30,934 bases of DNA from a virus. Its lineage: Duplodnaviria; Heunggongvirae; Uroviricota; Caudoviricetes. The notes beneath the pieces were generated by a model. That model searched no databases. It saw nothing but the letters and a program-made list of their open reading frames with translations, and was not told where the DNA came from. The stretch lies in the IMG/VR virus record IMGVR_UViG_2526164634_000026. One strand, 5' to 3'. The translations under genes and the position numbers were made by a program. The first letter of the stretch is position 1. Every line of letters starts with the position of its first letter. Shown in pieces: positions 6,886 to 10,553 of the stretch.

Positions 6886-7018
6886 TTTTTGGGACTCCTG
6901 GCTGATTAAGTATGTCGATAAGGCGTTTCCATCCGTCACGTAATTTACGGGTGATTCGTTCAAGTAAAGATTCGGAAGGGCAGCCAGCAACAGGCCACCC
7001 TGCAATGGCATATTGCAT
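6854..7018 (-). CDS. cIII: Lambda CIII (FtsH/HflB inhibitor), 54 aa
   Basis: Hand-translated from ATG at 7018 (MQYAIAGWP…YPD*, stop at 6854-6856); below the track's 60-aa cutoff; 32-nt overlap with kil as in lambda. Confidence 0.8.
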   Translation of the reverse strand: MQYAIAGWPVAGCPSESLLERITRKLRDGWKRLIDILNQPGVPKNGSNNYGYPD

Positions 7019-7090
7019 GGTGTGCTCCTTATTTATACATAACGAAAAACGCCTCGAGTGAAGCGTAATTGGTATGCGGTAACGCCGCGC

Positions 7091-7459: not shown

Positions 7460-7475
7460 CTGTTCATATCCTCAC

Positions 7476-7505
7476 AGATAAAAAATCGCCCTCATCTTGG
7501 AGGGC
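7476..7505 (-). terminator. Intrinsic terminator just upstream of ea10 (tL2-like)
   Basis: Stem GCCCTC/GAGGGC with 6-nt loop followed on the minus strand by GATTTTTTAT. Confidence 0.5.
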
Positions 7506-7647
7506 AAAGAAGATTTCCAATAATCAGAACAAGTCGGCTCCTGTTTAGTTACGAGCGACATTGCTCCGTGTATTCACTCGTTGGAATGAATACACAGCGC
7601 TGTGTTTATTCTGTTGTTTGCGTGAAAATGAAATCCGCCTGAGCGGG

Positions 7648-8529
7648 TTATGACCACTTTTTGTTTGGGTTTCGTTGGTGAGCGTGGTTTACAGGATTAT
7701 TTGATATACCCCATAACTCTGACTCGCTTATCTCTACACGAGAGAAAGACCTGCTTTCTTTCAGTTCTTTTATAAACCTAGAACCTAAGATGACATCTAT
7801 TGTACCAGAAAGTTCTTGTAAAAGATCTATGTTTTTTCTGAGGAAGAAAATATCTTCTTTATATTTAATTTTTACATAGAATTTATTCTGTATTTTTAAT
7901 ATATCAAAGCATGGCAGATATCTATATCCCTCATATTTTCGCCACTGCTTAACAATTATAACATCTTTTTCATTTACTGCATTAATCAGCCCAAGACCAA
8001 GTACAGGTATGAATATTCTATTGTCTGCCGAAAGCGTACAATTATCACCACCAGGCAAATATGTATAAATCATGTCGGAATTTTTATACGCATCAACGAA
8101 TGCACGTAAGAAGCGTACATATTTTTGCCATCCGTTTATACCGAATTTACCATATAAGTATTCTTTATTTGTTAGAAGAAAACTATTTGTATCAGGATCC
8201 TTATCTACAGACCTGTCGATAAGATCTCCAACTACGTTTACAAAGTCAAAGACAGAGTTTAATAAGAACAATTGTCTTTCAGTAGGGCGAATTTCAATTA
8301 TGTAGCCAGGATGAAGACGATATTGCATCTGCTTACGAAGTATACCGAACGCTTGGGTCCGAGCATCTGAAAGCAACTTCTTGTCGCCATCGCCGTGAGC
8401 ATTGTTTCTAATAAAACTGATATAATTTGCTAATTTTTCAGCCTCTTTTTTGTGTTTTTTTCGCTCTGATGCTGAGTCTATTGGTTTTGGTATGGACTTG
8501 TAATCAATCTTCTTCATTACGTACCTCAT
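7648..8529 (-). CDS. Hypothetical 293-aa protein of unknown function, AT-rich, at the sieB/ral position directly downstream of N
   Basis: ORF track; start ATG overlaps the N stop (ATGA); no TM segments or motifs I recognise; GC clearly below the flanking lambda genes. Confidence 0.6.
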   Translation of the reverse strand: MRYVMKKIDYKSIPKPIDSASERKKHKKEAEKLANYISFIRNNAHGDGDKKLLSDARTQAFGILRKQMQYRLHPGYIIEIRPTERQLFLLNSVFDFVNVVGDLIDRSVDKDPDTNSFLLTNKEYLYGKFGINGWQKYVRFLRAFVDAYKNSDMIYTYLPGGDNCTLSADNRIFIPVLGLGLINAVNEKDVIIVKQWRKYEGYRYLPCFDILKIQNKFYVKIKYKEDIFFLRKNIDLLQELSGTIDVILGSRFIKELKESRSFSRVEISESELWGISNNPVNHAHQRNPNKKWS

Positions 8530-8849
8530 GCCAATGGAATGGATTCCCCTTTAACCTTTTGTCTTCCTTGACAAGTTATACCGAACTCACCTGGCTTGCT
8601 ATACCAAACTCGATGATTCTTGCGCTCAATACGTTGCAGGTTGCTTTCAATCTGTTCGTGGTATTCAGCCAGCACCGTAAGGTCTATCGGATTCAGTGCG
8701 CTTTCTACTCGTGATTTCGGTTTGCGATTCAGCGAGAGAATAGGGCGGTTAACTGGTTTAGCGCTTACCCCAACCAACAGGGGATTTGCTGCTTTCCATT
8801 GAGCCTGTTTCTCTGCGCGACGTTCGCGGCGGCGTGTTTGTGCATCCAT
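8526..8849 (-). CDS. N: Antiterminator N (lambda-type, 107 aa, variant C-terminus)
   Basis: Internal ATG of the 151-aa track ORF; MDAQTRRRERRAEKQAQWKAANPLLVGVSAKPVNRPILSLNRKPKSRVESALNPIDLTVLAEYH… recognised as lambda N; nutL upstream. Confidence 0.9.
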   Translation of the reverse strand: MDAQTRRRERRAEKQAQWKAANPLLVGVSAKPVNRPILSLNRKPKSRVESALNPIDLTVLAEYHEQIESNLQRIERKNHRVWYSKPGEFGITCQGRQKVKGESIPLA

Positions 8850-9006
8850 CTGGATTCTCCTGTCAGTTAGCTTTGGTTGTGTGTGGGAGTCGTAGTCCTG
8901 AACGAAAACACCCCGCAATGGCACATTGGCAGCTAATCCGGATTCGCACTTCCGGCCAATGCTTCGTTTCGTATCACACACACCAAAGCCTTCTGCTTTG
9001 AATGCT

Positions 9007-9200: not shown

Positions 9201-10553
<1,353 letters not shown>

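Follow-up and report, generated by a model that had tools for sequence, protein, structure and literature searches.

A gene beside N in Escherichia phage 434 joins the Nun arrest peptide to an unrelated protein and may encode a transcription-arrest factor

In phage lambda the interval between the antiterminator gene N and ea10 is held by SieB, orf28 and ral; a long open reading frame (ORF) that fills the same interval in another lambdoid phage raises the question of what is kept there instead. The stretch of DNA analysed here (30,934 nucleotides, IMG/VR record IMGVR_UViG_2526164634_000026; hereafter the window) is Escherichia phage 434, with positions 7460-9000 99.9% identical to OL657226.1 and OL657227.1. 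Phage 434 is a founding model of molecular biology. The ORF spans 293 codons (7648..8529, minus strand), against a maximum of 167 codons in 1000 shuffles of the same bases. Homology to lambda ends at the N stop codon and restarts at about 7615, from where it runs through a 14-bp hairpin and a terminator into ea10. The G+C content of the gene is 34.6%, compared with 48.8% for N and 46.4% for the window, and no hydrophobic segment was found in the protein (maximum Kyte-Doolittle 19-residue score 1.38). A preliminary description of this locus had proposed a real gene of low G+C content in the sieB/ral slot, without transmembrane segments and followed by hairpins ahead of the ea10 terminator, all of which is borne out here. 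It had also seen no motif in the product and treated the gene as unknown; in this it overlooked both a peptide of known function at the C-terminus and an existing GenBank entry (CPT_434_48, UMO75312.1), named 'Nun C-terminal peptide-containing protein'.

The protein shares with lambda SieB and Ral its position between N and ea10 and a moron-like foreign composition, but it differs from both in size, and SieB has a membrane segment where the 434 protein has none. A clear relationship to SieB or Ral had been named in the preliminary description as one of the observations that would speak against a novel function; PHROG and Pfam searches returned no homology to either. The full-length protein matches phrog_12139, a family without assigned function (E 8e-206; ORF residues 5-293 against profile positions 1-289 of 289), and searches of Pfam, NCBIfam and PADLOC with the protein or its family gave no match. 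The similarity of the tail to Nun is already recorded in GenBank. Within the literature and databases searched, the new elements are the family-wide conservation of this tail, the allelic equivalence with nun, the predicted TnpB-like core and the presence of cousins within BREX operons. No paper on this gene was found in the literature searched, and the announcement of the 434 genome is silent on it; as the lambda imm434 hybrid retains lambda's own sieB-ral segment, the gene would have gone unseen through decades of 434 and imm434 genetics. Of 5426 complete E. coli genomes 83 contain it, with the product labelled hypothetical, and any exclusion activity would therefore matter to competition between prophages and phages in natural E. 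coli.

The C-terminal arrest peptide

The last 14 residues of the 434 protein (VNHAHQRNPNKKWS) are identical to residues 96-109 of HK022 Nun, in the numbering of PDB 6ALG, the structure of HK022 Nun (chain N) on an E. coli elongation complex. The match is found by phmmer against 6alg_N among the PDB sequences (E 9.5e-4) and by BLASTP (E 3e-8), which extends the similarity over about 42 C-terminal residues of Nun, aligned to residues 240-289 of the 434 protein. The profile phrog_5632, 'Nun-like transcription termination factor', also matches, restricted to profile positions 93-112 and to the C-terminus of the protein. In the cryo-electron microscopy structure Nun is ordered at residues 87-109 only, and all known arrest determinants lie in this segment, which passes between the beta-prime zipper and the upstream DNA, continues past the lid and rudder into a pocket by the RNA-DNA hybrid, and wedges into RNA polymerase so that translocation is blocked (PMC5386594). 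Rudder, RNA and template strand are the contacts of N97, H98 and H100, R102 forms a pair with the carboxylate of the C-terminus, and K106, K107 and W108 touch DNA and the beta-prime subunit; S109 is listed with the residues touching the beta-prime rudder, RNA and DNA, while N103 makes no important contact and served as a control substitution (PMC5386594). Every arrest-relevant residue of Nun except H93 and R94 is present in the 434 protein, and the equivalents of N97, H98, H100, R102, K106, K107 and W108 are invariant in six homologues.

Among the six members of the family compared, which are 36-68% identical, mean pairwise identity is 82% in the tail, 48% over the whole protein and 19% in the nine residues that precede the tail. 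The residues V, N, H, A, H, R, K, K and W of the tail are invariant, and variation is confined to the positions of Nun Q101, N103, P104, N105 and the final S109. By these alignments no other stretch of the family is as well conserved as the tail. The family itself is small, with 4 proteins among 5.8 billion and a handful of 50%-identity clusters among 1.84 billion. The tail-codon differences between 434, mEp235 and PA28 are all synonymous; taken with the conservation of the tail at 36-68% overall identity, this argues for selection on the peptide and against an accident of recombination.

The DNA at this point nevertheless has the appearance of a classic mosaic joint. The 434 and HK022 sequences are unrelated 5' of the tail codons and abruptly become about 96% identical, through the stop codon and for at least 70 nucleotides beyond, with the HK022 side of the shared segment interrupted by IS903. 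The Nun tail might accordingly be a recombination scar left at a crossover point, with the protein acting through its WED-REC core (described below) alone, for example as a DNA- or RNA-binding regulator, and the remote relatives of the protein indeed function with a different tail. We regard this as unlikely, since the tail is retained in relatives only 36-47% identical, where it changes solely at the variable positions listed above, while the nine residues preceding it vary freely; one of the variable positions, N103, is the no-contact control of the structural work (PMC5386594), and the synonymous codon differences point the same way.

Two further observations concern the history of this joint. 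The tail codons of HK022 nun are nearer to those of the 434 gene than to those of nun in mEp235 or PA28, and the downstream flank of HK022 nun is lambda/434-like up to the IS903 insertion, which together suggest a crossover within the 42-nucleotide tail-coding stretch. An origin of Nun by deletion, with an N-like arginine-rich motif fused to the tail of a downstream long gene, would fit the gene order, but this idea was set aside.

Slots shared with nun and antitermination partners

HK022 Nun is a proven superinfection-exclusion factor, and the long gene of 434 is found in the same genomic slots as nun. In HK022 and O276, nun is the first gene after cI-pL-putL; in mEp235 it begins 3 nucleotides past the N stop codon, and in PA28 (L021, NC_041935) a full-length Nun ORF of 117 residues (2234-2587) lies directly after N, overlapping its 3' end by 47 nucleotides. 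The long gene likewise follows N by 1-8 nucleotides in 434 and in loci L004 and L006, and it adjoins N in most of the E. coli genome hits. The preliminary description had proposed a survey of the N-to-ea10 interval across lambdoid prophages; in the genomes compared here, the long gene or nun lies directly after N in 434, L004, L006, mEp235 and PA28. In loci L002 and L055, a homologue 41-42% identical to the 434 protein (290 residues in L055) is the first gene after a cI-type repressor, in the cI-pL-putL arrangement. Between cI and this gene, the spacer can be aligned to the one that separates cI from nun in HK022, with the putL block (as annotated in O276 and HK75) included; beyond putL, exactly where the O276 nun promoter and nun begin, similarity to HK022, O276 and HK75 is lost. 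The long gene is therefore an allelic replacement of nun in a put-type phage.

The RefSeq annotation of PA28 gives the Nun-like gene as 45 residues (2450-2587); the full 117-residue ORF contains the arginine-rich motif, and the annotated start is probably wrong.

The two forms of Nun keep different company. The partners of classical Nun are put in HK022 and an N annotated as HK620-like in mEp235; the arginine-rich motif of the PA28 N ORF is presumably of phage-21 type. The long form occurs with a lambda-type N in all 29 full-length IMG/VR copies (N identity 97-100%), 26 of which have the 434 repressor and 3 a different repressor. This pairing of the form of Nun with the antitermination system is suggestive. 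Classical Nun targets lambda-type boxB, so a phage with a lambda-type N that carried classical Nun would attack itself, the boxB-specific protein antagonising the resident N; placing the Nun tail on a different targeting domain would avoid this problem.

A predicted recognition core and the arrest it might deliver

Both proteins end in a disordered tail, both genes use the slots after N or after pL-putL, and in both a terminator lies 3' of the gene, yet outside the C-terminus the 434 protein and HK022 Nun have no similarity. Nun has 109-112 residues, is largely unstructured and binds boxB through its arginine-rich motif, whereas the 434 protein has 289 residues, of which about 210 are confidently folded in the predicted model, and in place of the arginine-rich motif has a WED-REC-like domain of about 150 residues and a basic helical hairpin. 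An AlphaFold model built from 4 close sequences was unusable (pLDDT, the per-residue confidence score, 42.6), and a usable model was obtained only with remote relatives added, from 28 sequences in all (pLDDT 79.1, predicted template modelling score 0.73). In this model residues 10-220 are confident and the last 30 are disordered (Table 1). The N-terminal hairpin is Lys-rich (isoelectric point about 10) and is confined to the phage, Nun-tailed subfamily, being absent from the remote relatives. BLASTP detected no similarity between the N-terminus and the arginine-rich motif of N or Nun, and there was no match to Pfam N36 or N_peptide; the idea of an arginine-rich motif hidden in this basic region was rejected, as the region shows no such similarity, is Lys-rich and is poorly conserved.

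In Foldseek searches the top ranks were taken by Cas12f, Cas12p and CasLambda, with weak scores (best E 7.8e-3), and nothing significant was found in BFVD; the structural check that the preliminary description had suggested returned a weak likeness to Cas12-type proteins from one search and nothing from the other. In an hhalign comparison with a profile of the TnpB N-terminus, 141 columns align colinearly (434 residues 69-222, ISDra2 TnpB residues 4-176). Residues about 69-222 are predicted to share the WED-REC-WED fold of TnpB and Cas12 proteins (ISDra2 TnpB, 8H1J; RdCas12n, 9UDI; ISFba1 TnpB, 8IAZ; Cas12f; Cas12p), together with colinear motifs at the first strand ('I.L.P..eQ...L') and in the second half of WED ('P..gLG.i' and 'G.rY...f.l.k....Y...I'). 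In TnpB, the WED-REC-WED module holds the target-adjacent motif and the guide-target duplex. The 434 protein differs from these proteins in having neither a RuvC nuclease nor a zinc-finger/TNB domain, with identity of about 9-14%; it ends about 65 residues after WED in a helix and the disordered tail, which leaves no room for a RuvC domain with its catalytic D-E-D triad. The Pfam OrfB models (PF01385, PF07282) did not match, and a profile search of PDB sequences gave one spurious 25-residue peptide only. On the strength of the model, the core is best described as a putative nuclease-less nucleic-acid-recognition domain of WED-REC type.

A TnpB-like fold and a conserved 3' module with hairpins directly after the stop codon might together indicate an RNA-guided effector, whose guide RNA would be encoded nearby and whose arrest tail would be delivered to complementary targets. 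This we consider highly improbable. The protein has no RuvC domain, the part of TnpB that carries much of the guide RNA scaffold; no conserved non-coding region travels with the gene, L055 and L002 having only 45 nucleotides, a plain terminator, before the next gene. The large hairpin downstream is present in lambda too, which lacks the gene, and a search of Rfam (E <=0.1) gave no match in or near the gene. No guide-RNA locus was detected, and the gene lies in a pL operon between N and ea10, outside any IS200/IS605 or IS607 transposon context (TnpA, transposon ends). An omega-RNA-like partner within the 3' hairpins was rejected for the same reasons, as the hairpins are not conserved with the gene and one is shared with lambda.

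The remote relatives recovered by profile search (E 1e-16 to 1e-4) give reciprocal matches to phrog_12139, share residues about 70-225 and have 17-26% identity with the 434 protein. Their own tail, GGLPSLGKRR, is different and strongly conserved, and it follows the motif S.xY.RVDF. The same motif is recognisable in the 434 subfamily as the acidic stretch ESRSFSRVEISES (residues 254-266, coded at 7720-7758), which spans the linker and tail parts of the protein and has a mean pairwise identity of 65%. At least six metagenomic BREX loci (L007-L010, L012, L015) have a member of one lineage, 276-288 residues long, inserted between brxC and pglX, and PADLOC recognises BrxA, BrxB, BrxC and PglX as its neighbours. 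The other relatives are solitary: one lies in a DISARM-like island, one beside chemotaxis genes, one in Dechloromonas next to genes for TrfA, ParB/RepB and a recombinase, and three on Burkholderia megaplasmids; a genome scan with a narrow alignment found 3 genomes only. Remote relatives thus occur on plasmid-like elements of Betaproteobacteria as well as in BREX operons. The BREX, Dechloromonas and Burkholderia proteins thus resemble the 434 protein in the core domain and in the motif before a short basic tail, and differ in the tail itself, in the N-terminal extension and in their defence-operon or plasmid context. These contexts and the differing tails suggest that the core is a module associated with mobile elements and defence, to which interchangeable short C-terminal tails are attached.

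The BREX operons that hold the additional 276-288-residue gene are type-1-like. In L007-L010, whose contigs are long enough to show them, four further genes follow, encoding proteins of 376 and 423 residues, an HSP70-like protein of 610 residues and a second MmeI-type methyltransferase; the 376-residue, 423-residue and HSP70-like proteins were scanned with PADLOC and were not recognised.

To our knowledge, the mechanism by which BREX inhibits phages is still unclear. The presence of relatives between brxC and pglX, the early expression of the 434 gene and its position in the slot of ral, an anti-restriction gene, would be compatible with a role in anti-defence, in which the phage protein would imitate a component encoded in BREX operons and so poison or decoy BREX or a related system. 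We think this very unlikely: linkage to BREX is found in one lineage only, the others being solitary on plasmid-like elements or among unrelated neighbours; identity to the BREX-linked forms is only about 16-20%, and in the phage forms the Nun peptide has taken the place of the family tail. Neither the 434 protein nor the BREX-embedded relative was recognised by any PADLOC model.

The likeliest reading, to which we give an even chance, is that the gene product is a modular transcription-arrest and exclusion factor, a 'long Nun' whose targeting domain is new. Where Nun has its arginine-rich boxB-binding motif, this protein would use the WED-REC module as its targeting device, possibly together with the basic helices of the N-terminus, and would be held by it at some particular feature of the DNA or RNA close to a polymerase at work. 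The tail would then block translocation of the polymerase, as in Nun, and the arrested complex would be removed, as with Nun, so that transcription of the target genome, most likely that of a competing phage, would stop early. The early transcription of the phage itself would be spared because its polymerases carry a modification, from lambda-type N in 434, L004 and L006 and from put RNA in L002 and L055. Such self-protection is plausible: put-modified polymerase is reported to escape termination by Nun, and lambda N also occupies the polymerase cavity, entering next to the upstream DNA and following the hybrid (PMC8632103). The 434 protein would also resemble lambda N, encoded in the same operon, in combining a C-terminal tail that reaches the polymerase cavity with a separate module for specificity, but the two have no sequence similarity, and the tail of N is of antitermination type where that of the 434 protein is of arrest type. 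The suggestion in the preliminary description of a candidate exclusion function, which had been drawn from position and composition, is supported in kind by the arrest peptide and the nun slots.

An arrest peptide need not be aimed at a competitor. The protein might instead be a general or self-directed modulator of RNA polymerase, shutting off the host in favour of N-modified phage transcription or tuning its own pL operon, and such a role would suit a gene that shares the pL transcript with N, lies before the first terminators and has no detected promoter of its own. Nun at saturating concentration in vitro arrests polymerase without nut (PMC5386594), and N-modified complexes may be protected (PMC8632103). 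We judge this alternative rather unlikely, as in L002 and L055 the gene stands in place of nun, whose role in exclusion is proven, the folded nucleic-acid-recognition domain points to a specific target, and 434 depends on the host polymerase throughout its cycle.

Several points weigh against a 'long Nun'. The phenotype and target that we assign to it are read from sequence, context and a predicted model. Two homologues lack the final Ser of the tail, and H93 and R94, which in Nun contact the upstream DNA, are not kept, being N-N in 434. As the tail-coding DNA of 434 and HK022 is about 96% identical, the identity of the two tails is in part a product of recent recombination. The fold assignment depends on a model predicted from 28 sequences, and the hhalign link to TnpB is marginal (E 0.016, probability <3%). 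The part of N that lies upstream of the gene gave no sigma-70-like promoter, and expression in the lysogen, which Nun-style exclusion needs, is therefore unsupported for 434. Finally, the tail of the remote relatives is GGLPSLGKRR, so that RNA polymerase need have no part in what the core did ancestrally.

If the protein does arrest polymerase, the Nun peptide is a portable module that evolution has attached to no fewer than two unrelated targeting devices, one an arginine-rich motif for RNA binding and the other a TnpB-like fold. The 'long Nun' would then be a natural example of retargetable transcription arrest, a second handle on the exclusion of rivals by phages and the first described role for a TnpB-type WED-REC module entirely without a nuclease domain. 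The relatives in BREX operons are in themselves a new and testable lead into BREX variants. A wider reading, which we put forward tentatively and hold to be doubtful, though conceivable, is that a WED-REC module of TnpB/Cas12 descent, stripped of its nuclease, has been domesticated to target a sequence or structure specifically and bring a polymerase-jamming peptide to it, and that the protein represents a new modular class of phage-borne targeted arrest effectors with cousins bearing a second type of tail in some BREX operons and on plasmids. Were this so, Nun would be the minimal member of a wider 'tethered tail' strategy, and the BREX cousins would mark an unrecognised accessory step in those BREX variants, in which the partner could be RNA polymerase or another nucleic-acid enzyme.

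Gene boundaries, flanking structures and other observations

The gene abuts N directly and is co-transcribed with it from pL. The first ATG of the ORF (8529-8527) overlaps the N stop codon TGA (8528-8526) as ATGA, as the preliminary description had noted in proposing translational coupling to N. The overlap exists, but that ATG is probably not the start: in L004, a 68%-identical homologue, the equivalent ATG is followed by AGG TAA and lies outside the ORF, whereas the second ATG (window 8517, MKKIDYK...) is the start in all homologues, in the GenBank coding sequence (CDS) and in the phrog_12139 profile. It is preceded at 6 nucleotides by GAGG, which overlaps the N stop codon, and L004 is arranged likewise. 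From these comparisons the true start is probably ATG 8517, giving a protein of 289 residues, and the proposed ATGA coupling depends on the other, probably incorrect, start.

Table 1. Features of the 434 gene and its surroundings (window coordinates)
Feature	Position	Strand	Basis and remarks
Intrinsic terminator upstream of ea10	7476..7507	-	Predicted, canonical, also delimited as 7486-7507; GenBank annotates a terminator here
14-bp hairpin, 3' untranslated region	7566..7597	-	Fold z-score -4.9 (7460-7660); lambda has it too
Mosaic joint inside the gene	7581..7694	-	DNA about 96% identical to HK022 nun 3' end and downstream flank
Small hairpin CCGC-TCAG-GCGG (7635-7646) and AUUUCAUUUU	7625..7646	-	Directly after the stop codon; weak terminator-like, U-rich tail
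CDS of the 289-residue protein, including stop	7648..8517	-	Starts of homologues, ORF length; alternative start 8529 adds 4 codons
Disordered C-terminal tail, residues 260-289	7651..7740	-	Predicted, pLDDT <50; last 14 codons (7651-7692) encode VNHAHQRNPNKKWS
Helical linker, residues about 226-259	7741..7842	-	AlphaFold helices 226-236 and 239-259, lower confidence
Core domain, TnpB/Cas12-like WED-REC-WED without RuvC, residues about 69-222	7852..8313	-	Predicted fold
Basic two-helix hairpin, residues about 13-65	8321..8481	-	AlphaFold helices 16-38 and 43-65, pLDDT 87-96
GAGG Shine-Dalgarno sequence	8524..8527	-	Overlaps N stop TGA 8526-8528; ribosome-binding site annotated in GenBank
Lambda-type antiterminator gene N	8526..8849	-	Pfam N36, E 1.8e-26; immediately upstream in the pL operon

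In four of the 29 IMG/VR prophage copies (L048-L051) the frame is broken by an indel, -1 or +1, within the A7/A6 runs (CGAAAAAAACACAAAAAAGAGG), at window positions about 8445-8465 and codons about 19-25 of the gene. A slippage switch, decay of the gene or an error of sequencing could account for these.

In every lineage (434/HK022, mEp235 and L055) the tail codons are succeeded by a terminator or a hairpin resembling one. The element at 7625-7646 has stronger terminators as its counterparts after nun in mEp235 and after the gene in L055. A terminator placed after the tail-coding end is the architecture of a moron-like cassette, as for nun, and in the sequences compared the tail and terminator look like a conserved 3' cassette. 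The terminator sites lie within a few nucleotides of the stop codon (L055, 3851-3870; L022, about 2090-2115; window, 7625-7646), and the stem is CCGC/GCGG in 434/HK022 and CCCAC/GTGGG in mEp235.

Elsewhere in the window, the lambda cIII thermoregulator RNA element is intact at 6973-7031 on the minus strand (Rfam RF01804, 88.5 bits). The hex gene lies downstream of cI in the rex slot (9201-9677, minus strand), where the mechanically called ORF has 158 residues and the annotated CDS 134; according to GenBank, Hex shields the repressor from RecA-dependent cleavage and its published start codon is wrong. On the plus strand, 19050-19254 matches the Rfam small RNA STnc100 over its full length but falls short of the gathering score of 47 (38.7 bits, E 4.8e-5).

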